DNA of 64,000 nt from an uncultured Acidobacteriota bacterium (GTDB lineage Bacteria; Acidobacteriota; UBA6911): assembly GCA_964474425.1 (NCBI GenBank), contig CAYYTC010000006.1, positions 20,503-84,502 on the forward strand. The letters run 5' to 3'. Of this stretch, positions 6,901-27,521 are shown piece by piece; position 1 is the first letter of the stretch; each line of letters begins with the position of its first letter. The notes under the pieces were generated by a model, which worked only from the letters and a program-made list of their open reading frames with translations, did not search any database and was not told where the DNA came from. The position numbers were made by a program, and so were the translations under genes.

Positions 6901-7173
6901 TTCGATGCTCCCCTGTCCTGAGGATGCGCTCTTGGATTGCATATAAAGCATCTGGTCCAGACCCGTCATTTTCTGCTCGATGATCTGGACGACTGTGTCT
7001 TCGACGGTCTTTGCCGAAGCGCCGGGGTACACGCCTCGAATACTGATCGACGGCGGTGCGATAGGAGGGTACTGAGCAACCGGCAGGTTGAAGATGGCCA
7101 ATACTCCAGCCAGCATCATGCCGATGGCGACAACCCATGCGAAAACAGGACGATTCAGGAAAAATCTGGCCAT
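3982..7173 (-). CDS. RND multidrug efflux permease, AcrB/MexB (HAE1) family
   Basis: 1063 aa, canonical N-terminus MARFFLNRPVFAWVVAIGMMLAGVLAIFNLPVAQYPPIAPP, 12-TM architecture with two large periplasmic loops. Confidence 0.95.
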   Translation of the reverse strand: MARFFLNRPVFAWVVAIGMMLAGVLAIFNLPVAQYPPIAPPSISIRGVYPGASAKTVEDTVVQIIEQKMTGLDQMLYMQSKSASSGQGSIELTFAPGTDPDLAWAKVQNKLQLAMPTLPETVQRQGLSVSKSTRNFLLIVTLTCEDGSLDQADLMDYAISQVQTSLARVPGVGEVESLASQYAMRVWLDPAKMTNFNMTPGDVIAAIRAHNVQVSAGQFGGTPAVPGQKLNVTITVQNLLKTPEEFGSIPLRNNPDGSVVRVKDVARPELGTEFTIFRLAYNHGYPAAALAVRQMAGANALETADAVKAAMEEMSRYFPAGMKVVYPYDTTPFVRAAIAEVVRTLIEAIILVFLVMYLFLGNMRATLIPTIAVPVVILGTFGVLAAFGYSINMLTMFAMIVAIGLLVDDAIVVVENVERIMTEEGLSPLEATRKSMDEITSALVGIGLVLSAVFVPMMFFGGSTGIIYRQFSITLISSMLLSVLVALILTPVLCANLLKPVAKGHEAAEAGSRLLRPFFLWFDRMFYGLRDAYRSAVGHILGYKIPYFALFIMIVVLMGIFFMKMPTAYLPDEDQGVLMTLVQTPPGATQEQTVEVLTKIRRHFMEDEKQAVEACLVIGGFSSAGSGQDQGMVYIKLRDWDLRDSTDLRADAVVRRANLAFARIRNARIYVIMPPAVTELGMAKGFDYMLQDRGGLGHQRLMEARLQLLMAAAGDPRLSRVRPNGMDDVPQYKIDIDWDKSGALGVPVSAVQNTISAAFGSAYVNDFIQGGRVKRVYVQADAPYRMLPGDLANFYVRNNAGKMVPINALVSGHWFYDSPQLERFNGFPALNFQGEPAPGESSGEAMKAMEELTAKLPKGIGHEWTGLSYQERMASRQTGILYAFSVLAIFLVLAALYESWTIPISILLALPLGVVGGVMATTWRNLPNDVYFQIGLLTVLGLTTKNAILIVQFAKIRVEQGMGLIEATLEGAKLRLRPIVMTSLAFGFGVLPLAIATGAGAGAQKAIGTSVLGGMITATFLAIFFIPLFFVTVSRLFGNKIRRRPGVPGPDAGTLQGGAHHEA

Positions 7174-7185
7174 CGATCGTCCCTC

Positions 7186-8409
7186 CTACCTTGATTCCAT
7201 TGAAGGCTGAGCGTTTGCCTCGGGCTCTTCATAGGGAACGGCCCTGACCGTGTTGCCGGCGCGCACGTTCTGGACTCCTTCAACGATCACGCTGTCGCCG
7301 GGGGTCAATCCACTCGTGACGATCCACCGATCTTCAATAGCGCGGTCCAGCGTCAGCATGCGCTGTTCCACTTTGTTGTCCTTGCCGACCAGGAGCGCGA
7401 TCGCATTCCCTTTCGTATCGCGAGTCACCGCCTGCTGGGAGACGAGCAGCGCCTGCTCGTTGACTCCTTCTTCCACGACCGCCCGGACGAACATGCCCGG
7501 GAGGAGAATCTGCCTGGGATTGGAGAACACGAGCCTCAATGTGACCGAACCCGTGGTCGGGTCCACGGTGACATCGCGGAATTGCAGGGTGCCTGCCGCC
7601 GGGTATTGGGTCCCGTCTTCCAGCAGCAGCCGGACCTTGCGCTGACTTGCTCCGGATCGTTTAAGCTCTCCCCCCTCGAGGCTTCGCCTCAAGCGCAACA
7701 ACTCCGCGCTGGCCTGAGTTACGTCCACATAGATGGGATCCAGTTGTTGAATCACGGCCAGCGGCGAAGGCTGATAAGCCGTTACCATCGCTCCCACGGT
7801 AATATTGGATTTGCCGATGCGTCCGGAAATTGGAGCTTTGATGGGTGTGTAGGAAAGGTTTATTGCGGCGCTTTCCATGGCGGCGCGGTTTACGTCGACA
7901 GCCGTCTTGCGTACGGCCAGATTGGCCTCGGCCTGCCGCAGAGCGGCGTCTGCGTCATCGGAATCCTGCTGCCCGACCGCGCGGATGTTTACCAGCCCTT
8001 TGAGACGTTCGGCGCGGGACCGGATGGCAGGCAGATTGGCCTCGGCCAGGGCGATTTGAGATTCGGCCATGGCAAGCGCGGCCTTGGCCTCGTTGTATGC
8101 CGCCTGGTACTGCGAGGGATCGATCTGATAAAGAATATCGCCTGCCTTTACATAGCTGCCTTCCTCGAAAAGGCGCTTCTGGAGAAGCCCGCTCACCTGC
8201 GGGCGGATCTCCGCGACAAGGAAGGCATTGATCCTGCCCGGCAATTCGGTTGTCAAAACGACCCGTTCCGACTTGACGGTCACGACTGCGACCTCCGCCG
8301 GACCTGCCGCGGGTGGAGCTTGCTTGGGCTTGCAGCCCGATAATAATAGTCCGGCAAGAACGCACGTTGCGGCGCCGACATATCTGGACCCATTTTTGAA
8401 CGGCATGTG
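7186..8409 (-). CDS. RND efflux periplasmic adaptor (membrane fusion protein, AcrA/MexA family) lipoprotein
   Basis: Lipobox LAGLLLSGCK, coiled-coil hairpin plus biotinyl/lipoyl-like and beta-barrel segments. Probable start MPFKNG, downstream of the ORF-track start. Confidence 0.8.
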   Translation of the reverse strand, partial: HMPFKNGSRYVGAATCVLAGLLLSGCKPKQAPPAAGPAEVAVVTVKSERVVLTTELPGRINAFLVAEIRPQVSGLLQKRLFEEGSYVKAGDILYQIDPSQYQAAYNEAKAALAMAESQIALAEANLPAIRSRAERLKGLVNIRAVGQQDSDDADAALRQAEANLAVRKTAVDVNRAAMESAAINLSYTPIKAPISGRIGKSNITVGAMVTAYQPSPLAVIQQLDPIYVDVTQASAELLRLRRSLEGGELKRSGASQRKVRLLLEDGTQYPAAGTLQFRDVTVDPTTGSVTLRLVFSNPRQILLPGMFVRAVVEEGVNEQALLVSQQAVTRDTKGNAIALLVGKDNKVEQRMLTLDRAIEDRWIVTSGLTPGDSVIVEGVQNVRAGNTVRAVPYEEPEANAQPSMESR

Positions 8410-9166
8410 AAAGCTCCTCAAGGCTACTACCGGCCGATAGCCCGGAACAGTATGAGATCCGGCTCTCGGACACAGCACATTCGAATTAGTTTCTGCTCCG
8501 AAAATAGCGGCCGCGATGGATCAATTACACCATTCGTTCACCCAACTGAGCGTCGGCGAAGCCGATTTTCATGCACTTGGGTGCGCCCCGGGCGCATGGA
8601 GGACTGTCGCGAAACTGGTTTGCGCTGCGCAGCGGCACCATGATTTTAGCCCGGCCTTTCATGGCAGGGAGCCGTGGTATTGGGAACAGCGCGTCGCGTA
8701 GGTCCTGAGATTCAGCGGTCCCTGCGCGACGGGAAACCGAATCCGTTTAGATCCATGCCTTAAAAGGCCTGGCTCAACTCAGCTGGCCGCGACGCGGCCC
8801 GGCTCTCATTTGCGGCTTTTATATAATATCAAATATCCTATCACCTGCTATAAAATCCGGTCTCTTCGCAAAACCCGAGTTTCGCGACAGAAGCGAATTA
8901 GCAATTTTTAATACTAAACCGCCGCGGTTCAGGAGGCAAGCACTGCCGGTCGCTGTTCGCTGTGCCTTGTTGCCGGTAGCCGGAAAAGGAACAAGACGCA
9001 GTTGCAGCAAGATTTATGCCATTCGGGCCGGGGACCCGGCATCGCGATAAATTCCGGAGGGTGCTGGTTTCCAAAAACCCTGCAGCCCTGTCCATGAAAT
9101 TCGGGGGATCCGCCGCACGCTTTTTGAATTACAATCAGGTTATTCCGGTGATGCATCGTTGAAGGG

Positions 9167-10306
9167 TTGGCGGACTCAATGGAGGCGGGTATGGCGCGCA
9201 GGAGTCGAAAGAGCAGGATACGAAGGGTGCATGCATCGATATTTTCCCGGCGCTCTCTCCCCGGCAGCGCACCCGGGACCCTGATCGTGGATCCGCATGC
9301 TCCGAAACCGGCCATACGCCTCGTATCCTTCAGCCCCGACAAGGTGATTGAAAAGCAGATCGATGATGTGCAGGATGCACGGTCCTTCGTAGGCATTGGG
9401 CCGGTTACTTGGATCAACGTGGCGGGACTCGGAGACCTGTCGGTAATCACAAAACTGGGCGAAATCTTCAACCTTCACCGGCTGGCCCTGGAAGATGTCC
9501 TCAACGTGCACCAGCGTCCCAAGGTGGAGCAGTACAAGGACTATATCTACATCGTGGTCCGGCTGGTGAAAGACGCGGAGAAATACGATTCCGAGCAGAT
9601 CAGCATTTTTCTCGGAAGAAACTTCGTGTTGAGTTTTCAGGAGCAGGCCGGCAAATATTTCGATCCCGTAATCGATCGTATCCGCGCCGGGACCGGCCGC
9701 ATGCGCACCGCCGGCACCGATCATCTGACCTATGCCCTGATCGATGCGGTCATCGACTGTCATTTCCCGATTCTGGAGCGTTTTGGAGAAACGGTGCAGT
9801 CTCTGGAGGACTCCATTGTCGCACAGCCCGACAGCCAGCTTATCGGACAGATACACGAACTGCGGCAGGGGCTGCTGACCCTGCGCCGCGTTGCCTGGCC
9901 CATGCGGGAAGCCATGGGGGTTCTATATCGCGATCCAATCCCGCTCATCGACGAGGAGGAGCGCTTCTACTTGCGGGACTGCTATGACCACATGGTGCAG
10001 ATCATAGATTTGATCGAGAATTACCGGGATGTAACCTCGGGACTGATGGAGGTGTACCTTTCAAGCATCGGCAACCGCACCAACGAAATCATGAAGGTTT
10101 TAACCATCATTTCGGCGGTGTTCATCCCTCTCACGCTCATCGCCGGAATCTACGGGATGAACTTCAACACCAAAGTCTCGCCCTGGAACATGCCGGAGCT
10201 GGAATGGATCTGGGGATATCCGTTTGCTTTGGGCCTGATGGCGCTGGTCGGGCTCATCCTCCTGCTGCTCTTCCGGTGGAAGGGCTGGCTCGGCAAGGCG
10301 AAATAG
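9167..10306 (+). CDS. corA: CorA-family Mg2+/Co2+ transporter
   Basis: 379 aa, cytoplasmic N-domain, two C-terminal TM helices with the YGMNF signature (IYGMNFNTKVSPW). An alternative start at about 9191 is possible. Confidence 0.85.
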   Translation: MADSMEAGMARRSRKSRIRRVHASIFSRRSLPGSAPGTLIVDPHAPKPAIRLVSFSPDKVIEKQIDDVQDARSFVGIGPVTWINVAGLGDLSVITKLGEIFNLHRLALEDVLNVHQRPKVEQYKDYIYIVVRLVKDAEKYDSEQISIFLGRNFVLSFQEQAGKYFDPVIDRIRAGTGRMRTAGTDHLTYALIDAVIDCHFPILERFGETVQSLEDSIVAQPDSQLIGQIHELRQGLLTLRRVAWPMREAMGVLYRDPIPLIDEEERFYLRDCYDHMVQIIDLIENYRDVTSGLMEVYLSSIGNRTNEIMKVLTIISAVFIPLTLIAGIYGMNFNTKVSPWNMPELEWIWGYPFALGLMALVGLILLLLFRWKGWLGKAK

Positions 10307-11448: not shown

Positions 11449-13200
11449 ATGTATCGAAAAAGGGGATTACTGTCGGTTCTGGCAATAGTTTTCGTTCTTC
11501 TAGTCGGATCAGCATCTTTTGGTCAGTCGCTGTCGGATATACGGCACAACATCAAAGCTAAGGGACAGAAGTGGATTGCAGGCGATACATCGATTTCCAT
11601 GCTGCCGGACAACGAGAAAAAGCGGCGCCTGGGATTGATCAGGCAGGCCGCAAACGGTAAGGAAAAAATTGTCCAGCTGCAGGAACCGGAGACGGGCCTG
11701 GCACCATCCGTCGATTGGACGAATTTCACCACCCCGGTGAGAAATCAGGGAAGCTGCGGGAGTTGCTGGGCTTTTGCCGTCACGGGCGCCCTGGAGGCCA
11801 ACATTCTGATCCGTGAAAACATGCCCCTCGGGGAGGATAACCGGGCGGAGCAGATCCTTGTTTCGTGCAGCGGGGCAGGAAGCTGTGGCGGCGGGAGTGT
11901 CGGTTCGGCGTCGATCTACGTTCAGTCCGTCGGCCTGCCGCCGGAATCGGATTTCCCCTACACAGCCACAGACAACACCTGCTCGAATGCCGAGCCAGGG
12001 TGGCAGGACAACACCAGTAAAGTCGGCTCGTGGTCCTATGTGAATACCACTCCGGCCAACCTTACGGCCATAAAAAATGCCCTTTCAACCTATGGCCCCT
12101 TGGTTACAACGATGGATGTCTATTACGATTTCTACTCATACAAGGGCGGAATCTACGAGTACTCTACAGGATCCCTTCAGGGAGGACACGCAGTTCTGAT
12201 CGTGGGATACACCGATGATCCGTCGCGCCCGGATGGGGGCTATTTCAAAGTTAAAAACAGCTGGGGAACCGGTTGGGGCAGCGGCGGCTATTTCCTGATC
12301 GGCTATTCGCAACTTAATAAACCGGTCTATTTTGGTGAATGGACCCTTGCGTACACGGCGCCGGCTTTAGTCTCGCCTCCGGCGGCGCCGGGCGGTTTGA
12401 CTGCATCCGCAGTTTCTTCCAGCCGTATCGATCTTGCCTGGACCGATAACTCAAACGATGAAGAGGGATTTAGAATTGAGCGCTGCACCGGCTCCGGTTG
12501 CAGCAATTTTTCGCAGCTGGCCACGGTCGGAATCGGTGTTACCTCCTACTCCAATACCGGCCTGACCGGAGGCGCAAGTTATTCCTACCGGGTGCGCGCG
12601 TACAACAACGGCGGCAACTCAGCCTATTCCGGCGCCGCAACCGCGACGACTCCGGCCGTGCAACCTCCTGCCGCCCCTACCGGTTTGACCCCTACCTCGG
12701 CTTCCACCAGCCAGATAAACCTAACGTGGACGGACAACTCCAGCAACGAAGCCGGTTTTAAAATTGAGCGCTGCACCGGTTCCGGGTGCACCGGCTTTGC
12801 GCAGATCGCCACAGTCGGTGCAGGCGTCCGGTCGTATAGCAACACGGGTCTTTCTGCAAATACCACATACGGATACAGGGTACGCGCCTATAATGCCGAT
12901 GCGAACTCGGCGTATTCGGGCGAAGCAAGCGCCAAAACGCTTTGCAGCTGCACAATTTCACCCACCAGCAAAAGCTTCCCGGCTTCCGGGGGCACCCTCA
13001 GCGTGACCGTTACTGCGGCCGCAGGCTGCAACTGGACGGTGAATGAAAGCCTGTCATGGGTGGAGAGCGTGAGTGCGGCAAGCGGCACAGGCAACGGCTC
13101 GTACACTTACAGAGTTGCCACAAACGCCAATCGCGCCCGGCGCGCCGGGACCATCAATATCGGGGGCAAGACCCACACGATCACACAGGCTAAGAAATAG
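11449..13200 (+). CDS. secreted papain-family (C1) cysteine peptidase with two tandem FN3 domains and a C-terminal BACON-like beta domain
   Basis: Signal peptide. Catalytic Gln/Cys (NQGSCGSCWAF), His (GGHAVLIVGY) and Asn-Ser-Trp (NSWGTGWG) motifs. Two about-94-aa repeats with ERCTGSGC...YRVRAYN...NSAYSG. C-terminal CSCTISP...CNWTV... domain. Confidence 0.8.
   Translation: MYRKRGLLSVLAIVFVLLVGSASFGQSLSDIRHNIKAKGQKWIAGDTSISMLPDNEKKRRLGLIRQAANGKEKIVQLQEPETGLAPSVDWTNFTTPVRNQGSCGSCWAFAVTGALEANILIRENMPLGEDNRAEQILVSCSGAGSCGGGSVGSASIYVQSVGLPPESDFPYTATDNTCSNAEPGWQDNTSKVGSWSYVNTTPANLTAIKNALSTYGPLVTTMDVYYDFYSYKGGIYEYSTGSLQGGHAVLIVGYTDDPSRPDGGYFKVKNSWGTGWGSGGYFLIGYSQLNKPVYFGEWTLAYTAPALVSPPAAPGGLTASAVSSSRIDLAWTDNSNDEEGFRIERCTGSGCSNFSQLATVGIGVTSYSNTGLTGGASYSYRVRAYNNGGNSAYSGAATATTPAVQPPAAPTGLTPTSASTSQINLTWTDNSSNEAGFKIERCTGSGCTGFAQIATVGAGVRSYSNTGLSANTTYGYRVRAYNADANSAYSGEASAKTLCSCTISPTSKSFPASGGTLSVTVTAAAGCNWTVNESLSWVESVSAASGTGNGSYTYRVATNANRARRAGTINIGGKTHTITQAKK
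12367..12931 (+). repeat. tandem direct repeat (2 x ~282 nt) encoding the two FN3 modules of the protease
   Basis: The two protein repeats are nearly co-linear (WTDNSN/SDEEGF-R/KIERCTGSGC...SYSNTGL...Y-YRVRAYN...NSAYSG), implying a recent intragenic duplication. Confidence 0.6.
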
Positions 13201-13738: not shown

Positions 13739-14317
13739 TTGACAGTGGAAAAGTTCAGCCCCTTTGTTCAAAGTGATGCTGAAAAGTGCATCGGCTGCAG
13801 GACTTGCGAGATTGCCTGTTCACTTGCCCATTCCCCGGATCCTGTGAAGACCGCCGGTGCGGCCGTCGGAGCATTCGTTCCCCGGCTGTTCGTGATGGTT
13901 ACGGCCGAAGTGGCGGCTCCTGTGCAATGCCATCACTGCGAAAACGCGCCCTGCCGCAATATTTGCCAGATGTCGGCTATCTCCCGGGTGGACGGCAGGA
14001 CGGTTGTCGATACCGGACGGTGCGTCGGCTGCAAGCTCTGTTTTATGGCGTGCCCCTTTGGGGCCATTGAATTTGTCCCCCAGCCCGACGGCACAAGGCC
14101 GATACATCTCGGAGCCTATTCCAGTCCGGAGGAATGGGCGAGCCGGCGCTGTCACCGCGCCAACAACTGCGACTTGTGCGTGAACCGCAAGGGTGGACCG
14201 GCCTGCGTCGAAACCTGTCCTCAAAAAGCGCTTGACCTTGTCAATCCGGCGGCGGAAAAAAACCGGCGCAATACTGAAGCGGCGCTGGACTTGCTGCTGC
14301 AGATGGGCGGAGATTAG
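13739..14317 (+). CDS. HycB/HydN-type 4x[4Fe-4S] ferredoxin
   Basis: 192 aa with four CxxCxxCxxxCP-type motifs (CIGCRTCEIAC, CHHCENAPCRNIC, CVGCKLCFMACP, CDLCVNRKGGPACVETCP). Confidence 0.8.
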   Translation: MTVEKFSPFVQSDAEKCIGCRTCEIACSLAHSPDPVKTAGAAVGAFVPRLFVMVTAEVAAPVQCHHCENAPCRNICQMSAISRVDGRTVVDTGRCVGCKLCFMACPFGAIEFVPQPDGTRPIHLGAYSSPEEWASRRCHRANNCDLCVNRKGGPACVETCPQKALDLVNPAAEKNRRNTEAALDLLLQMGGD

Positions 14318-14335
14318 CAAAAGCAAAAAGGAGTA

Positions 14336-15724
14336 GTGCGGGTGACTGAAGGATTTAGCCGGATTGATCAGGAGCTGTGCACCGGGTGCGACAACTGCAC
14401 CGCGACATGCCCCGCCGATGCCATCAGCGGTCAAAAGTATCAACCTCACGCGATTTCCGAGGAGCGTTGCGTGAGCTGCGGGCGATGCGTTCAAATCTGC
14501 AACGCTTACGACTCGATTTTCCAGAAATACCCGACACCGCGGGACCTGAGGCTGAAGCAACGGGACCTTCCGCCCGGATTCCCTGAGCCCCTGTTTGCGG
14601 CTTATGACCGGCGCTTTACCTCGAGTGTCAAGGCGGCCCTGGCCGATCCCGGCCTTGTGGTGATGGCTCAACTGGGACCGGCCGTATGCGGGCCCCTGGC
14701 CGAGGATTTCGGTTTGCCCGCGGGATCCCTGACGGAAGGGCGGGTCGTGGCAGCGCTGAAAAAGGCCGGCTTTCGGAAGGTATATAGCTTTTCGCTTCCG
14801 GCGGCGATGGCGGTGCTCGAAGAAGCGCATGAACTTGTCGAGCGGCTGCGGGAGGGCAGAATTTTGCCCGTTATCAACTCCTCGTGTCCGGCGGGAGTCA
14901 AGTTTATCGAGCAGTCCCACCCGGAGCTGATCCACTATATTGCGGGAAATAAATCCCCGCACCAGATAGCGGGCACGCTTGTCAAGTCGCGCGCTGCAAA
15001 AATGCTCCAGCTTTCTCCGGAAAGGATTTACAGCGTTTCCATCGGCCCCTGCAATTCCCGGAAATTTGAGGCAAGCCGGCCGGAGATGGCCTCCGGAGGA
15101 CGCCGGGACATCGATGCGGTATTGACGTCCCGGGATCTGGCTCATCTGATCAAGGACCTCGGAATCGACCTGTCTTCAATGGGTGAAGAAAGCCACGACC
15201 ATGAACTCCCCCCCCTGGTCGGGATGGATAGGGTCTACGGCATCCCGGGAGACATTACCGAAGCGGTCCTGAAGGCCGGTTACGGGCTTCTCGCGCCCTC
15301 GGCGGGACAGGCGCTGGAAGTGCAGTTTACCGAAACGGAAACCGAGGGAGTCCGCGCCGCCTCCGTAAAACTGGATGCATTCAGCGTAAAGGCAGTCGCC
15401 CTTACCGGGCTGCCGAATGCGGTCCCATTTCTCGATGCGATAAAGGCCGGCAAAAGCGACATCGCGTTTCTGGAAATCCTGGCATGCCCGATGGGCTGTG
15501 TCAGCGGCGGGGGACAGCCCAAGATCCTGCTGCCCCAGGATAAAACAGCCGCCTACCTGGAACGGGCGCGGCTCAACGGTGTCCCGGATGCCCGGGCCCT
15601 GCACAGTCTCGCGCGCAACGCTGAAGTGCAGAGGATCTATCGCGAGTGTTTTGGCAGACCCTGCGGCAACAAATCGAATCACGGCATTTATACGCAGTAT
15701 GTGGAGCGAAAACTGAGCCAATGA
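14336..15724 (+). CDS. [FeFe]-hydrogenase H-domain protein (M2-type: two N-terminal ferredoxin clusters) with non-canonical L1 motif
   Basis: L2 GPCNSRKFEA and L3 EILACPMGCVSGGGQP match the H-cluster signatures MPCxxKxxE and ExMACxxGCxxGGGQP. L1 reads NSSCPAG instead of TSCCPGW. N-terminus CTGCDNCTATCP and CVSCGRCVQIC. Confidence 0.8.
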   Translation: MRVTEGFSRIDQELCTGCDNCTATCPADAISGQKYQPHAISEERCVSCGRCVQICNAYDSIFQKYPTPRDLRLKQRDLPPGFPEPLFAAYDRRFTSSVKAALADPGLVVMAQLGPAVCGPLAEDFGLPAGSLTEGRVVAALKKAGFRKVYSFSLPAAMAVLEEAHELVERLREGRILPVINSSCPAGVKFIEQSHPELIHYIAGNKSPHQIAGTLVKSRAAKMLQLSPERIYSVSIGPCNSRKFEASRPEMASGGRRDIDAVLTSRDLAHLIKDLGIDLSSMGEESHDHELPPLVGMDRVYGIPGDITEAVLKAGYGLLAPSAGQALEVQFTETETEGVRAASVKLDAFSVKAVALTGLPNAVPFLDAIKAGKSDIAFLEILACPMGCVSGGGQPKILLPQDKTAAYLERARLNGVPDARALHSLARNAEVQRIYRECFGRPCGNKSNHGIYTQYVERKLSQ

Positions 15725-15770
15725 GGAATCGGGCGGTCCTTTTCGGAAGCGGATCGCCGCGGGGCGAAAC

Positions 15771-16250
15771 ATGGGATTTTTGCTGATAACACCGGAAGAC
15801 TGCACCAGTTGCCATTCGTGCGAACTGGCCTGTTCTCTGTTTCACGAAGAGGAGTTTAACCCTGCCCGCGCCCGCGTCGAGGTTCGGACGTGGGACGACA
15901 ACACGCACTCCGCCTCCGTAATGTGCCTGCAATGTGAAGAAGCCGGATGCATGGCCATCTGCCCGGCGGGAGCCATTACTGAAGACAAAACCACAGGGGC
16001 GCGCCTGGTCAACGGGTCGAAGTGCATCAAGTGCCGGATGTGCATCCAGATCTGTCCGTTCGGCAGCAATTTCTTCGACCTCAAGGGCCGCAAAATACTC
16101 AAATGCGACCTTTGCGACGGGGACCCGCAGTGCGCGAGGGTCTGCCCCTCGGGCGCCATCGTGTACGGGGAGCGGAATACGGCGAACACGGCGAAGCGGC
16201 AGCAGGCGGCCGCCAAGCTGAAAGTAATTTCCCGGGGAGCGAGAAGGTAA
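15771..16250 (+). CDS. 4x[4Fe-4S] ferredoxin (HycB-like)
   Basis: 159 aa, four Cys clusters (CTSCHSCELAC, CLQCEEAGCMAICP, CIKCRMCIQICP, CDLCDGDPQCARVCP). Confidence 0.75.
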   Translation: MGFLLITPEDCTSCHSCELACSLFHEEEFNPARARVEVRTWDDNTHSASVMCLQCEEAGCMAICPAGAITEDKTTGARLVNGSKCIKCRMCIQICPFGSNFFDLKGRKILKCDLCDGDPQCARVCPSGAIVYGERNTANTAKRQQAAAKLKVISRGARR

Positions 16251-17563
16251 TGTTCGGTTGGTGTGGACGATTGTTGCGGGTGAATCTGACGGACGGCGCC
16301 ATCGCCAGGGAATCCCTGGACCCTGAAGCCGCCAGAACCTTTCTTGGCGGGCGCGGGCTCGGGACCCGGCTGCATGCAAAAGAGGTCTCTTCCTCCTGCG
16401 AACCGCTGGGCGCCGCAAACCATCTGGTGTTTATCACCGGCCCTCTGACGGGCACCGTCGCGCCTAACGGCGGCCGCTACACGGTTGTCACCCGCGTGCC
16501 GCCCGAAGGCTCCATTGCCGCGGCCAGCATCAGCGGGAAATGGGGTTCGGAGCTCAAATTCGCCGGATTCGACGGGATCATCGTCGAGGGCAGAGCGGCT
16601 GAACCGTCCTATCTCTGGATTAAGGACGGCCATGCGGAATTGCGCTCCGCCGCGCGCGTTTGGGGCAAGCCGGTGAGGGAAACGACCGACCTGCTGGTCG
16701 CGGAAACGCACGAGAGATCGGTCGTTTCCTGTATCGGCCCCGCGGGCGAGAACGGCGTGAAAGGGTCGGTAATCGTCAGCGATTATTTTTCGGCTGCAGG
16801 CGGAGCGGGCGCGGGCCGGGTCATGGGCTCGAAGAATCTAAAGGCCATCGTCGTCTGCGGCACAATCGGGTTCCGTGCAGCCGATCACAGGCGGTTTCTC
16901 AAGCTGGCCACGGAATTCCGGACCTGGATGAAGACCAAACCGATTGCCGCAAGGGGCGTGCGTCTGCATGATTGCTTTCTCCGGGCGGACAGTGTCGCGT
17001 GGGATGCTGCGGCGCCCGAATCCAGGCCGGCCCGAACCAGGGGCTGCTTCGGTTGCGCAACTTCTTTTTCGTCTTTTACATTCGATGACAAAGTCAGGGC
17101 CCTGCCGCTGCTTGCGGGATCGCCGCCCGCCGAACTGGGCGAGAGGCTGAGGGAATACCGGCATTTTGCCGACCTGGGGCTGGATTTTGTCGCAGCCAAG
17201 ACCTCCCTGGCTTCTCTCGGCAAAGAGGCCGAAGCGGATCCGGCCGGGTTTGCCCGAAAGCTGGCCGCCGGCGAAATGGAAGGAACCGGAAGCATAAACG
17301 GCAATCGCGCGATGGACCGGGGAGCCTGTTTTGCTTCCGGTTACGCGGTTGCCCCGAATATCTCCCAGGGCAACGGACAGGACAGGGCGCTGAGCTGCCT
17401 GGTAAGCATTCTTGATTCCGCGGGATTGTGTCCGTTCCTTGCCGCCGGGATAGAAACAGGCACGATCGCCGGGCTGCTGAATGCGGCCACGGGAATCGAT
17501 TTTTCGCAGGAAGAAATCCTGCAGGCGGGGCAGCGCATCAGCCTGCCCGGCAACACCGACTGA
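16250..17563 (+). CDS. aldehyde:ferredoxin oxidoreductase (AOR) family protein, truncated (N-terminal AOR domain plus shortened C-terminal region)
   Basis: Start is TAATG-coupled to the preceding ferredoxin. N-domain MFGWCGRLLRVNLTDG...GGRGLG...LVFITGPLTG...KNLKAIVVCGT is typical AOR. C-terminus keeps CFGC and the DSAGLCPF (DSxGLCxF) cluster-ligand motif, but the protein is about 437 aa versus about 600 for canonical AORs. Confidence 0.65.
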   Translation: MFGWCGRLLRVNLTDGAIARESLDPEAARTFLGGRGLGTRLHAKEVSSSCEPLGAANHLVFITGPLTGTVAPNGGRYTVVTRVPPEGSIAAASISGKWGSELKFAGFDGIIVEGRAAEPSYLWIKDGHAELRSAARVWGKPVRETTDLLVAETHERSVVSCIGPAGENGVKGSVIVSDYFSAAGGAGAGRVMGSKNLKAIVVCGTIGFRAADHRRFLKLATEFRTWMKTKPIAARGVRLHDCFLRADSVAWDAAAPESRPARTRGCFGCATSFSSFTFDDKVRALPLLAGSPPAELGERLREYRHFADLGLDFVAAKTSLASLGKEAEADPAGFARKLAAGEMEGTGSINGNRAMDRGACFASGYAVAPNISQGNGQDRALSCLVSILDSAGLCPFLAAGIETGTIAGLLNAATGIDFSQEEILQAGQRISLPGNTD

Positions 17564-17628
17564 AGGCGTTGCCGAAGGGACTATGAAGAACACGTGCGCA
17601 ATGATACGCCGGTCGTTGATCTCCGCGC

Positions 17629-19038
17629 TTGGCATTCACAGGGGGTGAAGACTTGTTCCTGTTGCCTGTACTGTTAGCTGCGGCAGCAATGCTGGGTACC
17701 CTGGCCGTAGTGGTTCGCAGCTATGGCGCTGTCTGGTCCTTTGACCTGGGCACCGTGCCCTGGCTGGCCGGCCGGGAGGCCTTATTCGGCATCCGTATCG
17801 ACGGATTGAGTTCCCTGATGCTGCTGGCTATCACCGTAGTCGGCTTTCTGATCATCCTTTACTCCGGCGGATACGTGAGCGCCCGCAACCGCGAGCACCC
17901 GTCCAACGAAGGACAGGGACGGTACTATTTCTTCATGCTGCTCTTCGTTGCCGCGATGATCGGCCTGGTGATTTCGCCCAATTTCTTTCAGTTGTTCATT
18001 TTTTGGGAACTGACGACGCTCTGCTCCTGGGGTCTGATAGCCTTCTACCGCGACAGGGAAGCGCTGGGTTCCGCTTATAAGGCGCTGTTGATCACCCATG
18101 CCATGGGGCTCTTCCTCGAAGCTGGCATCATTCTCGTTTACGTCAACACCGGTTCATTCGCCTTTCCCGCCATCGAGCAGCTTTCCCCCGCGCTGAAGAC
18201 ACTGGCCGTGGTTTTCTTTGTGATCGCGGCGCTGGCGAAGGCCGCGCAGTTTCCGTTCTTCACGTGGCTTCCTACGGCCATGGCGGCCCCGACTCCGGCC
18301 AGCGCCTATCTTCATGCCGCGGCAATGGTCAAGGCCGGCATCTATCTGATAGCCCGGCTGCTGATCAGTATGAGCGTGTTCCCGCCCAAGGTCGGTGTTG
18401 TTCTCGGCGCCCTGGCGATGGTGACCATGCTGACCGCCGTGCTGCTCTACTTCGTTCAGGACGACTTGAAAAGGCTTCTTGCCTACTCCACCATTGCAAA
18501 TCTGGGCTACATGGTCCTGGGTCTTTCGCTCGGCAGCCTGGGATCCAGCCTGGCTTTGCGTGGCGGCCTGCTTCATCTCATCGGGCACTCATTCACCAAA
18601 AGCCTGCTTTTCCTGGCGGTCGGCGCGATATCGTTCGCGACCGGGACGCGCAGGATCTCAACGCTGAGCGGCCTCAACAAGAGAATGCCGCTGACTTCTT
18701 TGGCCTTCGTCCTCGGGGCTCTCGCCATCAGCGGCGTCCCTCCCTTCAACATGTTCTGGAGCAAGTTTTTCATAATTGCCGGCGCTTTTCAGCTGCATAC
18801 GGGTTGGGGGTGGACGCTCGGGCTGCTGGCACTGGTGGAAAGCGTCGCGGGATTTGCATGGTTTCTGCATGTCGTGCACAAGGTTGTTTTCGGCGCCCCG
18901 GCCCCGGCAGCCGAAGGAGCGCAGGATCCGCCCGCCGTTATGGCGATACCCTTGCTGGCGCTGATGGGCCTAATCCTGCTTTCGACCGTTTTCGCCTTGC
19001 CGATTATTGACCGGCTGGTCGGAGGATTGGGACGATGA
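17629..19038 (+). CDS. hydrogenase-4 antiporter-like membrane subunit (HyfD/NuoM/MnhD-like)
   Basis: 469 aa polytopic protein of the NuoL/M/N fold. Start codon uncertain. Confidence 0.8.
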   Translation: MAFTGGEDLFLLPVLLAAAAMLGTLAVVVRSYGAVWSFDLGTVPWLAGREALFGIRIDGLSSLMLLAITVVGFLIILYSGGYVSARNREHPSNEGQGRYYFFMLLFVAAMIGLVISPNFFQLFIFWELTTLCSWGLIAFYRDREALGSAYKALLITHAMGLFLEAGIILVYVNTGSFAFPAIEQLSPALKTLAVVFFVIAALAKAAQFPFFTWLPTAMAAPTPASAYLHAAAMVKAGIYLIARLLISMSVFPPKVGVVLGALAMVTMLTAVLLYFVQDDLKRLLAYSTIANLGYMVLGLSLGSLGSSLALRGGLLHLIGHSFTKSLLFLAVGAISFATGTRRISTLSGLNKRMPLTSLAFVLGALAISGVPPFNMFWSKFFIIAGAFQLHTGWGWTLGLLALVESVAGFAWFLHVVHKVVFGAPAPAAEGAQDPPAVMAIPLLALMGLILLSTVFALPIIDRLVGGLGR

Positions 19039-21062
19039 CCGCAATGCAAGTATTCGCCGGCTCCATGGCTGTTCTGGCCGCGACCTCCGTTCTTACGCTG
19101 CTGACGGCAGATCGCCGAAAAGTGGCCGGCGGGATTAATTTTGCCGGCACCGCCTGTGCGGCTCTGGGGATGCTGTGGCTCGCGGCCAGGGCGCTGTTTG
19201 CGGGCCCGCTGGAATTCGGGTATGGAAGCGTCCGTGTTCTGGGCCTGAGCGCACAGCTGGATTTTCGCATTGACGGCCTGAGCGCCCTTTTTCTCTCGAT
19301 TATCGCAATCCTTGTCACGGGCTCCGCTCTCTACAGCATCGGCTATCTCGATCACTACCGCCACGAAGGGCTGCGAAGGTACTATTTCCCCTTTCCGTTG
19401 TTCATGGCCGGCATGCTGGCGGTGGTGACCGCTGCCGACTGGTTCTGGTTCCTGGTTTTCTGGGAGGTCATGACGCTGACGTCCTATTTCCTGGTGGTCT
19501 TCGAAAACGACAACAAGGAAAACCTTTCGGCCGGATTCCTATATTTTTTCATGACGCATCTCACGTCGGCCGGGCTGATGGTCGCGGTGATGTTCCTGGC
19601 GAACAGGTCCGGCTCATTTGCCTTTGCGGCGCTTCCGGACCTGTTTAACAACCTTGCCTACACGAACCCGGCCGGCCTTCACCTCCTCCTGCTCCTCTTC
19701 TTCATCGCATTCGGGACCAAGGCGGGGATGTATCCCCTCGGTGTCTGGCTGCCCGCCGCGCATCCCGCGGCTCCGGCCAGCGTCAGCGCACTGCTCTCGG
19801 GCGTCATGATCAAAATCGGGGTCTACGGAATGCTGCGGGTCTTCGTCTGGATGCTCCCGGTAGTTTCGGCGGCCGTCCTCTGGGGAACCGTTATCGCCAC
19901 CTTCGGGATTATTTCCATGGCGGTCGGGACACTGCGCGCGCTGGGTGAACACGACTGCAAAAGGCTGCTGGCCCAGAGCAGCATCGGCCAGATGGGATAC
20001 ATCCTGCTCGGTCTGGGGCTCGGCATGGTTTTCATGTCCCGCAGCCCGGTTTTCGGCGTGATCGCGCTGATCGGCTGCCTCTACCACATTGTCAATCATG
20101 CCTGCTTCAAATCCCTGCTCTTTTTCAATACCGGTTCACTGTTGTTCCGGACAGGCACGCGGAACCTGGATAAGATGGGCGGCATGATACAGCTGATGCC
20201 GGTGGCCGGGGCATGCGCCATCGTTGGAGCGCTTTCCATCGCCGGAGTCCCCCCTTTCAACGGCTTCGTCAGCAAATGGCTTCTCTACCAGAGCGCCATC
20301 TTTGGGAAGCCTGCATCCGTTTTCATCGTGTACGCCGTCATCGCAATTTTCATGAGCACGGTTACCCTGGCCTATTTCATCAAGTACCTGGGCACCGCCT
20401 ATCTCGGCACGATGCCGGAACGTTTTGCCGGCAGCCCCCACGGATCTCCCCGGTCGATGGAAATCGTGCAGCTCGTGCTCGCGGCCGGATGCCTGATGCT
20501 TGGGATCTACCCGGCGACCGTGGTTCTGGTCCTGCTGGGAGTCCTGGAACCTGCCCTGAGCATAGCCAATTCCCGTCTGGCCCAGGGGGCGCTCGGCGCT
20601 TTGCCGTGGCTCGGGATGAAGCTGGACCTGAATTCTGTAAGCACGGCCGCTGCGGGCCCCGCCATCATACTGGCGGCGCTCGCCGCCTGTGCAGGTATTG
20701 CGTATCTGATATATCGCAGCGTCCAGGTGGAGAGCCGGCCCGCATCCATCTGGAATTGCGGGGAAGTTGTTTCCGACGAAGCGGTGCGCTATCGCGCCAG
20801 CAGTTTTTACAAGCCGTTCCGGAACCTGATCAGCCCTGTGTACCGGAAAATCCGGTGGCCCCGGATTTCTCCGCCTCAATCCTTCGCGCGCAGCCTGGAC
20901 CTGGACCGCTGGTTGTACTTTCCAATAGGTTCTGCCTTTGTCCGCATCGGCAGGGCTTTCAGCAGGATTCATAACGGCGTGCCTCAGTTCTACCTCCTAT
21001 GGCAGGTGGTGGGGCTCGTCCTTTCCGTTATGTTTGTTTTCTGGTTGATGGGAGGAAAATAA
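19035..21062 (+). CDS. hydrogenase-4/formate hydrogenlyase antiporter-like membrane subunit (HyfB/HycC, NuoL-like)
   Basis: 675 aa, about 16 TM, conserved WLPxAHxAPxPVSALL motif. ATGA overlap with the upstream gene. Confidence 0.85.
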   Translation: MTAMQVFAGSMAVLAATSVLTLLTADRRKVAGGINFAGTACAALGMLWLAARALFAGPLEFGYGSVRVLGLSAQLDFRIDGLSALFLSIIAILVTGSALYSIGYLDHYRHEGLRRYYFPFPLFMAGMLAVVTAADWFWFLVFWEVMTLTSYFLVVFENDNKENLSAGFLYFFMTHLTSAGLMVAVMFLANRSGSFAFAALPDLFNNLAYTNPAGLHLLLLLFFIAFGTKAGMYPLGVWLPAAHPAAPASVSALLSGVMIKIGVYGMLRVFVWMLPVVSAAVLWGTVIATFGIISMAVGTLRALGEHDCKRLLAQSSIGQMGYILLGLGLGMVFMSRSPVFGVIALIGCLYHIVNHACFKSLLFFNTGSLLFRTGTRNLDKMGGMIQLMPVAGACAIVGALSIAGVPPFNGFVSKWLLYQSAIFGKPASVFIVYAVIAIFMSTVTLAYFIKYLGTAYLGTMPERFAGSPHGSPRSMEIVQLVLAAGCLMLGIYPATVVLVLLGVLEPALSIANSRLAQGALGALPWLGMKLDLNSVSTAAAGPAIILAALAACAGIAYLIYRSVQVESRPASIWNCGEVVSDEAVRYRASSFYKPFRNLISPVYRKIRWPRISPPQSFARSLDLDRWLYFPIGSAFVRIGRAFSRIHNGVPQFYLLWQVVGLVLSVMFVFWLMGGK

Positions 21063-22760
21063 ATGACGACTTCGGCGGATCTGATTGCAGCGGTACAGGA
21101 ACGGTTTCCCGGAGCCCTGGTATCCAGCGAGCAGCCGAGCCGGGACCGGCTGTTTTTGACGGTAACACGGGAAAGCATGCCGCGGGTTGCGGACTACCTG
21201 TTCAATTCTGCGGGGGCAAGACTCATCCTGTCCTCGGGGACGGACAAGAGTCCGATCAACGGGACTTACGAGGTGACCTACATTTTCTGCCTGGATCAGG
21301 ACAATCTGATCCTCGCCGTCAAGGAAATCGTGGACCCCGCCGACCCGCGCATACCATCGCTGACCAACATCATTCCGGGGGCGGACTGGCACGAGCGCGA
21401 GATGTACGACATGATGGGCATCGTTCCCCAGGGGCATCCGGATCCGCGGCGCCTGGTGGTTTCCGACGACTGGCCTGAAGATGTCTACCCGCTGCGCAAG
21501 GAGGTTCCGTACAACTTCAAGCCGCCGCGCGTTGCGGAAGTCAAGCCGCCGATGCGTGAGCCCAGGGAGGGTGAGAAGCAGGCTACGATCCTGAATGTCG
21601 GTCCTTTTTTCCCGACGCTGGAAGAGCCGGCCTATTTCCGCCTGTACGTGGAGGGGGAGAAGATTGTCGGCAGCGATTATAGGGGCTTTTTCGCCCACCG
21701 CGGCATTGAAAAGCTGACCGAAACCGTGATGGACTACAACCAGGTGCCCTTTATCGCGGAGCGCATCTGCGGAATCTGCGGTTTTGTTCACAGCGCCACT
21801 TACTGCATGGCGGTGGAGCAGGCGGCCGGGATTGAAACCCCGCCGCGCGCAAAGTATATCCGCTCCATCATGCTGGAGCTGGAGCGCGTGCACAGCCATC
21901 TGCTATGGCTGGGCCTGGCCGCGCACTATCTCGGCTTCGATACCGTTCTGATGCAGGCCTGGAGAATCCGCGAACCGATCATGTGGCTGACCGAGGAAAT
22001 TACCGGCAACCGCAAAACCTTCGGAATGAACCTGCCGGGCGGAGTGCGCCGCGATATTGATGCCGCCACGGCGGAAAAAATACTCAAGACGCTCGAAAAG
22101 GTGGACTCGGAGACCCGGGAGTTGATCGAAGCCGCGGTCGAGGACAACTCGCTGAAAATGCGCCTGGAACATGTGGGCGTTCTCAGCAAGGAGGATGCCC
22201 GCAAGGTTTGCGTGGTGGGGCCCACCGCCCGGGCTTCCGGCGTGGCGATCGATGTCCGGAAGGACCGCCCCTATCTGGCCTATCCCGACCTGGATTTCAA
22301 AGTCGCGGTTCAGGAAGGCTGCGACATATGGGCCCGGACGCTGGTGCGCGCCGAAGAGGTCTTCAGCGCAATTTCCCTGATGCGGCAGATGATCGAAAAG
22401 ATGCCCTCCGGGGAAATCATGGCTGATGTCGGTCCGATTGCGCCGTGGCGCGAGGGTATCGCGACCGTTGAAGCCCCGCGCGGCGAGTGTTGCCACTACG
22501 TGATAACGGGGCCGGACAACCGGCCGTACCGCTGGCGCGTCCGCGCCTCGACCTATCCCCAGCTCCAGTCCATTCCCAGGATGCTGGACAACATGAGCGT
22601 GGCCGATTTCCCCATCATCGTGGGCAGCATCGATCCCTGCTTTTCCTGCACGGAGAGGGTTATCACGGTGGATGCAAGAAGCCGGAAGATCCGGACCTAT
22701 TCCGGGGAAGAGCTTTTGGCCTTGAGCCGAAGAAACAGCGGACAAGGGAGACGTTCGTGA
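21063..22760 (+). CDS. group-4 [NiFe]-hydrogenase large subunit (HycE/HyfG type, NuoC-NuoD fusion)
   Basis: N-terminal Ni-Fe ligand motif RICGICGFVHS and C-terminal DPCFSCTERV. 565 aa with a NuoC-like N-terminal segment. Confidence 0.9.
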   Translation: MTTSADLIAAVQERFPGALVSSEQPSRDRLFLTVTRESMPRVADYLFNSAGARLILSSGTDKSPINGTYEVTYIFCLDQDNLILAVKEIVDPADPRIPSLTNIIPGADWHEREMYDMMGIVPQGHPDPRRLVVSDDWPEDVYPLRKEVPYNFKPPRVAEVKPPMREPREGEKQATILNVGPFFPTLEEPAYFRLYVEGEKIVGSDYRGFFAHRGIEKLTETVMDYNQVPFIAERICGICGFVHSATYCMAVEQAAGIETPPRAKYIRSIMLELERVHSHLLWLGLAAHYLGFDTVLMQAWRIREPIMWLTEEITGNRKTFGMNLPGGVRRDIDAATAEKILKTLEKVDSETRELIEAAVEDNSLKMRLEHVGVLSKEDARKVCVVGPTARASGVAIDVRKDRPYLAYPDLDFKVAVQEGCDIWARTLVRAEEVFSAISLMRQMIEKMPSGEIMADVGPIAPWREGIATVEAPRGECCHYVITGPDNRPYRWRVRASTYPQLQSIPRMLDNMSVADFPIIVGSIDPCFSCTERVITVDARSRKIRTYSGEELLALSRRNSGQGRRS

Positions 22761-23659
22761 CAAACATCGCTATCGGCGTCTTCAATATACTGCTGGTCCT
22801 CCTTGCCGCGCCTCTGCTGGACGGCGTTTTGCGAAAGGTGCGGGCTTTGATTCATTCGCGGCAGGGGCCTCCCGTGTTGCAGACCTATTACGACCTGGCC
22901 AAGTTGATGGTGAAAGAGGACCAGAGCGCGGTCAACAATTTCCTGTTTAATGCCGCGCCGATTGTTTGCCTGGCTTCCGTCCTGCTGGCCGCCCTTTTTA
23001 TTCCCATGGGCGGGGTGGTTCCGCTGGGATTTGCCGGGGACGCGCTGGTGCTGATGTACATCCTGACGCTGGCCCCGATCTTCCTGTGCCTGGGCGGTAT
23101 GGCTTCGGGCAGCCCTTACGCATATGTCGGCGCGAGCCGGGAAATAATGATGCTGATGGTGGTCGAGCCGGTTCTTGCGATCACGCTGATTGCCACGGCG
23201 GTCAAGGCCAACTCGCTGCTGCTTGCGAACTGCATCGAACGGTACGTGTCCGGCCCCCCGGATATTTCTCTGATTATCTGCGCCATTGCCTTCTTTCTCG
23301 CCCTCCAGCCGGAAGTCGCCAAGGTTCCTTTCGACCTGGCCGAAGCCGAACAGGAAATCATGGAGGGCCCGCTGGTCGAATATTCGGGCCGCAAGCTGGC
23401 GCTGCTCAAGTGGTCGATGTATTCCAAGCAGATTGTATTTATCGCCCTGCTGGCCGGAGTCTTCCTCCCCTGGCCCAGGACGGGATTTTTGCCGTTGAGC
23501 GTCGTATTCACGCTTTTGAAGGTCCTGGGGATCGCCGTGCTGGTGGAGGTGATCGCCCTGGTGTTCCCGCGGCTTAAGATCAACCAGGCGATCCGCTATT
23601 TCGCCATAGTGATCGCCGTCGCCTTGACGGGTTTGATACTTGCCGTCATGGGTCTATAA
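22757..23659 (+). CDS. formate hydrogenlyase membrane subunit HycD/HyfC (NuoH-like)
   Basis: GTG start overlapping the hycE stop (GTGA). N-terminus ...LLDGVLRKVRALIHSRQGPPVLQTYYDLAKL is a classic NuoH/HycD signature. Confidence 0.85.
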   Translation: MTNIAIGVFNILLVLLAAPLLDGVLRKVRALIHSRQGPPVLQTYYDLAKLMVKEDQSAVNNFLFNAAPIVCLASVLLAALFIPMGGVVPLGFAGDALVLMYILTLAPIFLCLGGMASGSPYAYVGASREIMMLMVVEPVLAITLIATAVKANSLLLANCIERYVSGPPDISLIICAIAFFLALQPEVAKVPFDLAEAEQEIMEGPLVEYSGRKLALLKWSMYSKQIVFIALLAGVFLPWPRTGFLPLSVVFTLLKVLGIAVLVEVIALVFPRLKINQAIRYFAIVIAVALTGLILAVMGL

Positions 23660-23677
23660 GGGATTCGGGAAACAACG

Positions 23678-24205
23678 ATGATACCGCTTTTGAAAGAAGC
23701 CTGGATTTGCCTGCGGGCCGGCCGCGTGACGCTGCCGTATCCGCTGAAACCGACGAAAGCTCCGCCTCGATTCCGCGGGCGCCCGAGCATCGATGGAGAC
23801 AAATGCATCGGGTGCGGCGCCTGCGCGGAAGTGTGTCCTCCACGGTTGATTACGGTCACCGATGAGGGCGCTACCCGTCGCATTTCCATGGATTATTCCC
23901 GGTGCACCTACTGCGCGCGCTGTCAGGAAATATGTCCGGTCCAGAGCGCCAGGCTCACCGAGGATTTTGAGGACGCCACAGCCGACCGCGCCGACTTGAC
24001 GGTCGCAGTGGAATTGGAACTCGCTCCGTGCAGGAACTGCGGCACGCCGTTCATCACCCGGCGAATGCTGGCCAAGCTGTCCGATGAATTCTCCCCTCCC
24101 TGGATGAAGGAAAAGCTTGAAGCTCCGGACTGGTTCCAGCTGTGCCCGGATTGCCGGCTCGAAAAAACAGGGGCCGCCATAGACAGGAGCGTCAAACATG
24201 AGTAG
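23678..24205 (+). CDS. formate hydrogenlyase 2x[4Fe-4S] subunit HycF/HyfH (NuoI-like)
   Basis: CIGCGACAEVCP and CTYCARCQEICP motifs, 175 aa. Confidence 0.85.
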   Translation: MIPLLKEAWICLRAGRVTLPYPLKPTKAPPRFRGRPSIDGDKCIGCGACAEVCPPRLITVTDEGATRRISMDYSRCTYCARCQEICPVQSARLTEDFEDATADRADLTVAVELELAPCRNCGTPFITRRMLAKLSDEFSPPWMKEKLEAPDWFQLCPDCRLEKTGAAIDRSVKHE

Positions 24206-24863: not shown

Positions 24864-24878
24864 AAGAGGATTCTCAAA

Positions 24879-27446: not shown

Positions 27447-27476
27447 GAAAAAACTAGGAACGCAGATTTTTATTTT

Positions 27477-27508: not shown

Positions 27509-27521
27509 ATCGGCAGGTGTA

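Follow-up and report, generated by a model that had tools for sequence, protein, structure and literature searches.

The altered H-cluster pocket of a HydA2-like [FeFe]-hydrogenase homologue encoded in a Hyf-type formate hydrogenlyase operon of an uncultured Acidobacteriota bacterium

Several systems related to the one described here are already known: the hydrogen-dependent CO2 reductase (HDCR), formate hydrogenlyase 2 (FHL-2), the sensory hydrogenases HydS, the archaeal group F/G hybrids, and an anomaly in Rhodospirillum rubrum, namely a [FeFe]-hydrogenase-like gene that occurs without maturases. The locus of interest lies in a 64,000-nucleotide stretch of DNA from an uncultured Acidobacteriota bacterium (contig CAYYTC010000006.1; this whole stretch is hereafter the window). 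It contains a gene at 14336–15724 (+ strand) for a HydA2-like [FeFe]-hydrogenase homologue whose H-cluster pocket is remodelled; the protein was analysed with Pfam, phmmer, MAFFT and AlphaFold2 (AF2). This gene, whose product is referred to below as the HydA-like protein, is the second in an operon of 15 genes (13739–30264, + strand). The reading that we favour, at a probability of about one half, is that the HydA-like protein is a HydA2-derived iron–sulfur (Fe-S) relay or scaffold subunit, lacking a functional [2Fe] site, of a Hyf-type formate hydrogenlyase.

Pocket residues are numbered as in Clostridium pasteurianum hydrogenase I (CpI), the sequence of which was verified against PDB 1C4A/3C8Y. 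Lys358 is essential for [2Fe] binding. Knoerzer et al. are said to have mutated C299, M353, K358 and M497 as key second-sphere residues in 2012, with K358N reportedly abolishing [2Fe] binding. The residues C299, S319, E279 and E282 form a strictly conserved proton path; S319A alone leaves 6% activity in CpI (PMC6226526).

The H-cluster motifs of the HydA-like protein are L1, VINSSCPAGVK (residues 179–189), SIGPCNSRKFEA (235–246) and EILACPMGCVSGGGQP (380–395). A preliminary description of the sequence had read L1 as NSSCPAG, with the first cysteine (equated with CpI Cys299) replaced by serine and the tryptophan gone. This reading is correct: NSSCPAG sits under TSCCPAW in a full-length phmmer alignment with HydA2 of the Thermoanaerobacter kivui HDCR (7qv7_D), while MAFFT alignment with CpI equates Ser183 with Cys299, Cys184 with Cys300, and a glycine with Trp303. 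The agreement of two independent alignments rules out a mis-registered L1 with a canonical Cys-Cys pair. The same description found L2 and L3 in agreement with the H-cluster signatures. That stands for the cysteine ligands C355, C499 and C503, but not for the second sphere, where Met353 is Gly237, Lys358 is Arg242 and Met497 is Leu382. Further pocket positions are likewise substituted: Gln325 (His209), Phe417 (Tyr301), Thr420 (Pro), Gly422 (Asp306), Met424 (Thr), Ala230 (Gly), Ile268 (Phe) and Thr297 (Asn). The Cys299 to Ser replacement is one among about 15 coordinated pocket changes. The proton path E282-S319-E279-C299 is incomplete; both glutamates are kept (E166 and E163, for E282 and E279), while Ser319 is Ala203 and Cys299 is Ser183. 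Overall, the protein departs from the canonical features of catalytic group A enzymes at L1 (TSCCPxW), at L2 (MPCxxKxxE) and at the second-sphere residues of L3 (ExMxCxxGC). All 12 Fe-S cysteines are retained: eight in the N-terminal region, and the H-cluster ligands Cys184 (C300), Cys239 (C355), Cys384 (C499) and Cys388 (C503).

The altered pocket is shared by a clade. The MAFFT alignment comprised 122 sequences (the query, T. kivui HydA2 and 120 database homologues, with CpI added for numbering); 76 of these carry the altered residue set, and 46 are canonical (TSCCPAW / MPCTCK / EVMTCP). In a neighbour-joining tree of 117 full-length sequences with CpI as outgroup, the altered sequences are monophyletic (70/70), and their sister is the canonical HDCR-type HydA2 clade (46/46, T. 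kivui HydA2 included). Position 299 is Ser in 73 members and Ala in three; because it is Ser or Ala in all 76, the substitution is not a matter of chance or sequencing error. Lys358 is replaced by Arg or His in 75/76 members, and Met353 by Gly, Ala, Val or Ser in 75/76. Gly422 is Asp in 67/76, Gly418 is Cys in 64/76, Met497 is Leu or Arg in 58/76 and Ser319 is Ala in 48/76. The clade also differs from the 46 canonical HydA2 sequences by F417→Y, T420→P, M424→A/T, W303→A/G, Q325→H/R, I268→F and T297→N. Throughout these changes the Fe-S cysteines are invariant, including the four of the H-cluster (76/76). The replacements have a stepwise look: at positions 299/353/358/497/422, the residues are S, V/A, H, M/A, D in basal members like that of R. 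rubrum; S, V, R (or K), M, D in intermediate ones; and S, G, R, L, D in the crown group, to which the query belongs. The sequences of the clade span 43–100% identity, and the clade is old and under purifying selection. Full-text literature searches turned up no account of the clade or its pocket signature, nor of the way its genes are always embedded, across phyla, in Hyf operons with an AOR-like (aldehyde oxidoreductase-like) partner; searches on the clade or the R. rubrum locus tags yielded passing remarks only.

Outside the clade, two distant metagenome [FeFe]-hydrogenase homologues (30–33% identity; L036 1608–3494 and L045 2414–4202) have L1 sequences of TSSCPAF / TSSCPAW. The same Cys to Ser change has therefore occurred in at least one other lineage.

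The HydA-like protein is 462 aa long with a GTG start (the database copy, P0001, begins two codons downstream). It matches Pfam Fe_hyd_lg_C (PF02906; E = 3e-66, 223.9 bits against a cutoff of 22.1), preceded by an N-terminal 2x[4Fe-4S] ferredoxin domain and followed by a tail that is small-subunit-like at sub-threshold level. A Pfam scan found neither a PAS nor any other sensor domain. Both the M2 architecture of an [FeFe]-hydrogenase homologue and the lack of a sensor domain, as put forward in the preliminary description, are thereby upheld. The nearest solved structure is 7qv7_D (phmmer E = 1e-124, residues 5–459 on 5–459); lower-ranked PDB matches are the Desulfovibrio desulfuricans hydrogenase DdH (258 bits), a bifurcating HydA1 (253 bits) and CpI (196 bits). 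An AF2 model built with 54 homologues (pLDDT 90.9, pTM 0.92) has 7qv7_D as its best fold match (TM 0.89/0.92), hydrogenase structures overall giving TM values of 0.8–0.9. Against NCBIfam TIGR02512 (FeFe_hydrog_A) the protein scores 283.4 bits, under the trusted cutoff of 405.95; a canonical HydA2 (P0061) scores 454 bits and the R. rubrum clade member (P0102) 241 bits. In agreement with such a below-cutoff group A score, NCBI calls the R. rubrum protein a "large subunit C-terminal domain-containing protein" and nothing more specific. The closest genomic relatives of the HydA-like protein are from Acidobacteriota metagenome-assembled genomes (MAGs), at 61–64% identity.

The clade occurs in a single type of operon. 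Six diverse clade members were looked up and, together with a genome scan and a metagenome scan, yielded 15 distinct variant-clade loci, which range from Acidobacteriota MAGs to R. rubrum. In all 15, genes for an AorA-like polyferredoxin and an AOR-like protein lie directly 3' of the HydA-like gene, and a HycB4-like gene lies 5' of it in every locus with upstream sequence. The series HyfD-HyfB-HycE-HycD-HycF-HyfE(-HyfF) continues in 14/14 loci with enough flank. A FocA formate channel gene is inserted after the HydA-like gene in five loci, and FhlA-like sigma-54 activators are found in L010 and L011, the latter with an adjacent split (selenocysteine) FdhF. The 11 distinct canonical HydA2 loci read HycB-HydA2-HycB, with or without FdhF (i.e., HDCR), and AOR-like or hyf genes occur in none of them. 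Comparison of the window with locus L003 ranks the HydA-like and AOR-like proteins lowest in conservation among the subunits (63–64% identity, versus 73–82% for the others); against R. rubrum, the values are 46% and 40%, versus 51–68%.

Two of these loci deserve separate mention. P0058, whose locus (L011 97–2238) has the adjacent split (selenocysteine) FdhF and a divergent sigma-54 activator, is the sole clade member that retains Lys358; it may be an evolutionary intermediate between the HDCR form and the Hyf-embedded form. In L009 13732–21249 (the P0060 locus, on a 240-kb contig) numerous short open reading frames (ORFs) stand in place of whole hyf genes, with the HydA-like and AOR-like genes intact; either the long reads contain indel errors or the [NiFe] module is truly decaying.

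In the window, all 15 operon genes are on the + strand. The first (13739–14317) encodes a HycB4-like polyferredoxin of the 4x[4Fe-4S] type (7qv7_B, E = 4e-43, then HycB3 and the HycB of Escherichia coli formate hydrogenlyase (FHL); Pfam Fer4). Downstream of the HydA-like gene are the AorA-like polyferredoxin (15771–16250; Fe-S subunit of Aromatoleum AOR, 8c0z_C, E = 2e-34, and 9mqx_E) and a truncated, 437-aa AOR-like protein (16250–17563; Pfam AFOR_N strong, AFOR_C weak). Then follow HyfD-like (17629–19038; antiporter-type; NCBIfam NF005097, 554.7 bits against a cutoff of 430) and HyfB-like (19035–21062; NCBIfam NF005086, E = 1.6e-149) membrane subunits, and a group 4 [NiFe]-hydrogenase large subunit of the HycE/HyfG type, a NuoC-NuoD fusion (21063–22760; Pfam Complex1_30kDa, NiFeSe_Hases, Complex1_49kDa). 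The series continues with the NuoH-like membrane subunit HycD/HyfC (22757–23659; Pfam NADHdh, 300-aa orthologues in all loci), the 2x[4Fe-4S] subunit HycF/HyfH (23678–24205), the NuoK-like membrane subunit HyfE (24198–24863; Pfam Oxidored_q2), an antiporter-type HyfF-like membrane subunit (24879–26483; Pfam Proton_antipo_M) and the NuoB-like [NiFe] small subunit HycG/HyfI (26470–26967; Pfam Oxidored_q6, NCBIfam NuoB family). The last three genes encode a HycI-type protease for large-subunit maturation (26964–27446; TIGR00072, 110.7 bits against a cutoff of 47.45; Pfam HycI), a second HycB3/HycB4-like polyferredoxin (27522–28049; 7qv7_B, E = 3e-35; 7qv7_A; 7z0s_B) and a selenocysteine formate dehydrogenase, FdhF (28120–30264; TIGR01591, 915 bits with U read as C, against a cutoff of 666). 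The operon thus encodes three polyferredoxins of the HycB/AorA type.

Both Ni-Fe ligand motifs of the [NiFe] large subunit are intact (RICGICGFVH and DPCFSCTER, the latter followed by a C-terminal extension). These motifs and the dedicated HycI protease indicate that an H2 site is already present in the complex; they exclude an Ehr-type complex that is devoid of a [NiFe] site and in which the [FeFe] protein would be the true H2 site. FdhF contains an in-frame TGA at 28549–28551 (HCARV*HAPSV) and is 82–83% identical to the split FdhF of L011; ORF finders break it into pieces of 143 and 566 aa, and a 545-aa antisense shadow ORF (28099–29736) has no family match. Given the selenocysteine FdhF, the polyferredoxins and the complete Hyf-type group 4 [NiFe] hydrogenase, the operon therefore encodes a Hyf/FHL-2-type formate hydrogenlyase, to which two modules of degenerate appearance are added. 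In effect, it is the entire HDCR gene set (FdhF, two HycB and a HydA2-like protein) around a group 4 [NiFe] hydrogenase, plus an AOR-derived pair.

The AOR-like protein aligns with Pyrococcus furiosus AOR over residues 1–239 and 483–530 only; the AOR middle region of ~230 residues is replaced by about 140 non-aligning residues. Across the window and its orthologues in L006–L011, this conserved AOR-family protein is ~430–480 aa long; it retains domain 1 of AOR and a short stretch from the C terminus (DSAGLC), whereas the pterin/[4Fe-4S] domain is mostly missing. Only two cluster cysteine positions are invariant among seven orthologues. From its sequence, then, the AOR-like partner also looks degenerate. 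A role as a substrate-oxidising module that replaces FdhF is excluded: the central domain is gone, and the selenocysteine FdhF closes the operon.

The two extra proteins, HydA-like and AOR-like, have catalytic prototypes and are here remodelled or truncated. With its pocket rebuilt, and always found within a [NiFe] formate-to-hydrogen operon, the HydA-like gene looks like a former hydrogenase reused as a subunit. This reading draws on the remodelled pocket, the monophyly of the clade beside HDCR HydA2, the synteny, the H2 site and the FdhF that the operon already encodes, the FocA and FhlA-like regulators of sister loci, the below-cutoff group A score, the low conservation of the HydA-like and AOR-like subunits and the degenerate AOR-like partner. 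According to the proposed mechanism, the HydA-like protein would descend from HydA2 of an HDCR and, along with its HycB4-like polyferredoxin, would have become a permanent part of a membrane-bound [NiFe] formate hydrogenlyase resembling FHL-2. Formate would be oxidised at FdhF, and electrons would pass via a polyferredoxin wire to the [NiFe] site, where H2 would be made and ion translocation driven. The HydA-like protein would keep three [4Fe-4S] clusters (the two N-terminal clusters and the former H-cluster cubane) and would have lost the functional [2Fe] subcluster; lacking that subcluster, it would be an Fe-S relay, docking or scaffold module rather than a second, uncoupled H2 site. Without [FeFe] activity, electrons would also no longer be lost to an H2 site at which energy is not conserved. 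The earlier suggestion that the protein acts through partners in its complex is probably right.

R. rubrum provides an additional view of the clade. Its member (ABC21115) lies in the same operon type, with hypFCDE adjoining, and genes neighbouring it have been reported to be expressed or induced (PMC11268599). Nar1 clusters with the R. rubrum protein (PMC4967309).

Several points weigh against the relay or scaffold reading. It is not obvious why selection would favour an Fe-S side branch that is purely a dead end, and the relay or scaffold role is one that we infer. Kim et al. (2008), as cited in PMC8541310, handle the R. rubrum protein as an Fe-only hydrogenase. In the 64-kb window, no hydE/hydF/hydG, hyp or focA genes were found; since only these 64 kb were scanned, the lack of hydEFG says little about the host genome. 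The remaining points concern the pocket itself, and they also favour the strongest alternative: that the complete H-cluster is still bound, in a slow, biased or H2-sensing [FeFe]-hydrogenase like the group C/D HydS. Within the complex, such an enzyme might adjust the FHL to the partial pressure of H2 or act as a second H2 site that is not coupled. The bridging Cys503, the other H-cluster cysteines and the GGGQP loop are invariant in the clade, and the outer proton-path residues E282 and R286 are kept in 73/76 and 75/76 members; retention of this set is the look that a tuned H-cluster enzyme would be expected to have. The change of Lys to Arg at position 358 is conservative and keeps the positive charge, and a serine at 299 could still hydrogen-bond. 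The second-sphere pattern (non-Cys at 299, a small residue at 353, Leu at 497) resembles that of the group D sensory hydrogenase TamHydS, in which C299A, M353S and M497L go together with a bound H-cluster and slow turnover (PMC11803613). Two more points favour this alternative: AF2 predicts a hydrogenase fold with confidence, and the pocket changes are themselves strongly conserved, so that the site is under selection.

Other observations run counter to a tuned H-cluster. The residue at which substitution by Asn reportedly abolishes [2Fe] binding, Lys358, is replaced in 75 of the 76 members. Five residues are changed in the 417–424 loop, including the Asp at 422. The HydEFG maturases are reported to be absent from R. 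rubrum, a cultured carrier of the clade (PMC4967309). The HydA-like protein has no signalling domain, and no regulator is fused to it or adjacent to it in the window. Lastly, if the [FeFe] site were active and uncoupled, it would be a short circuit past the energy-converting [NiFe] module. On balance, we hold a tuned H-cluster to be possible, if somewhat unlikely. The slow catalytic variant and the sensor that the preliminary description offered are thus both possible and neither is best supported; a hydrogenase-derived Fe-S subunit fits more of the evidence.

A more elaborate version of the locus would be a bacterial counterpart of the archaeal hybrids: a membrane supercomplex of HDCR-derived [FeFe], AOR-derived and energy-converting [NiFe] modules. 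In it, the H-domain would hold either (i) a functional di-iron site, with a Ser proton relay, an Arg/Asp second sphere and no or unknown maturases, which would make it a new hydrogenase subclass, or (ii) a new catalytic or cofactor site beside the cubane. We regard this as unlikely.

It is more doubtful still that the remodelled pocket beside the cubane is, by itself, a new active or binding site for a non-H2 ligand. Candidates would be a small anion, a C1 compound (formate/CO2 or an aldehyde) or another cofactor, possibly with the truncated AOR-like protein as partner. What was a hydrophobic cofactor nest has become a conserved polar or charged one (Ser183, His209, Arg242, Tyr301, Asp306, Asn181, and the Cys at 418 in 64/76 members), in a clade that is old and under purifying selection, and the HydA-like gene is strictly co-inherited with the AOR-like gene in 15 loci. 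Such a site, however, is without precedent; formate oxidation is already supplied by FdhF, and the AOR-like protein lacks most of its pterin/[4Fe-4S] domain. Finally, it is scarcely credible that the gene is a pseudogene in decay or a normal HydA2 altered by faulty assembly: the HydA-like protein does evolve faster than the neighbouring subunits, and the hyf genes of L009 are fragmented, but an unbroken ORF is present in 15 distinct loci and in 76 database sequences, the substituted residues are invariant in the clade, and the identical protein was obtained from two independent read sets. A singleton mutation, a sequencing error and a pseudogene are excluded by this conservation.

Around the operon, the gene directly 5' (11449–13200, + strand) encodes a presumably secreted papain-family cysteine protease with fibronectin-III and BACON-like domains; the same gene is in the same place in Logan contigs L001 and L002. 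A search upstream of the operon found no sigma-54 promoter above chance. Farther upstream are an RND efflux system (2586–8478, - strand; outer-membrane factor, 1063-aa AcrB-type pump and membrane-fusion protein) and CorA (9167–10306). At 41051–43000 (- strand) lies the gene for an unusual protein of 649 aa that combines PRC-barrel, MgtE_N and CBS domains but gave no match to the MgtE channel domain; an Nramp transporter is encoded next to it (39767–41044, - strand).

The relay or scaffold reading bears on how such genes are counted. Annotations from the Joint Genome Institute (JGI) name clade genes "NADP-reducing hydrogenase HndD" or "iron-only hydrogenase", and surveys of soils and peat rich in Acidobacteriota would score them as [FeFe]-hydrogenases, although H2 is probably neither made nor consumed by these proteins. 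Within the locus, the [NiFe] Hyf module is where H2 chemistry takes place. The operon appears to catch modules of two filament-forming "nanowire" enzymes—HDCR (HycB3/4, HydA2 and FdhF) and AOR (AorA and AorB)—in the act of joining an energy-converting hydrogenase and then losing catalysis. The same process has been invoked for NuoG and complex I; here, a catalytic sister clade survives for comparison. The clade is also a natural, strongly conserved multi-site variant of the H-cluster pocket (C299S, K358R, M353G, M497L, G422D), which could serve to test the second-sphere needs for [2Fe] insertion.

Of the known systems, the closest is HydA2 of the HDCR (T. kivui 7QV7, Acetobacterium woodii; [FeFe] group A4). 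The HydA-like protein shares its length, two N-terminal [4Fe-4S] clusters, H-domain and small-subunit-like tail, at about 41–47% identity and TM 0.89–0.92, along with a HycB4-like partner and, in the operon, FdhF and a second HycB. It differs in that TSCCPAW / MPCTCK / EVMTCP are replaced and the threshold of the group A hidden Markov model is missed; moreover, the HDCR is a soluble four-subunit enzyme, while the HydA-like gene is part of a membrane-bound [NiFe] Hyf operon. With the sensory hydrogenases TamHydS (group D) and the Thermotoga maritima TmHydS (group C) it shares loss of the proton-relay Cys and replacement of Met353 and Met497 by a small residue or Leu (PMC11803613). Unlike them, it lies inside group A beside HydA2, has no PAS or other C-terminal extension, is also changed at Lys358 and in the 417–424 loop, and is encoded in an FHL operon rather than a regulator/kinase neighbourhood.

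The E. coli complexes FHL-1 and FHL-2 (Hyc/Hyf; 7Z0S) resemble the window operon in FdhF (with selenocysteine), the HycB-type ferredoxin, HycE/G/F/D, HyfB/D/E/F and the HycI protease, and FocA and an FhlA-like regulator occur in its sister loci; the E. coli complexes lack HydA-like, AorA-like and AOR-like subunits. The archaeal hybrids (groups F/G with group 3f/3g; Greening et al. 2024, PMC11216029) likewise combine an [FeFe] homologue and a [NiFe] hydrogenase in one predicted complex. They are, however, HydA-HyhS fusions with soluble group 3 [NiFe] hydrogenases and NuoEFG-type modules, at ~25% identity to model enzymes, and one of them, Th1, is active (PMC11216029). The window system is bacterial, with a group 4 membrane-bound [NiFe] hydrogenase, unfused proteins, HDCR ancestry and a remodelled pocket. 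Identity with the archaeal group F/G hybrids is excluded, as those are fusions to group 3 small subunits from another lineage (PMC11216029). Nar1/NARFL and the N-terminal domain of NuoG, in turn, offer an analogy: they kept the hydrogenase fold and Fe-S cysteines after hydrogenase function was lost, as may be the case for the HydA-like protein, which differs from them in lineage, partners and cellular role.

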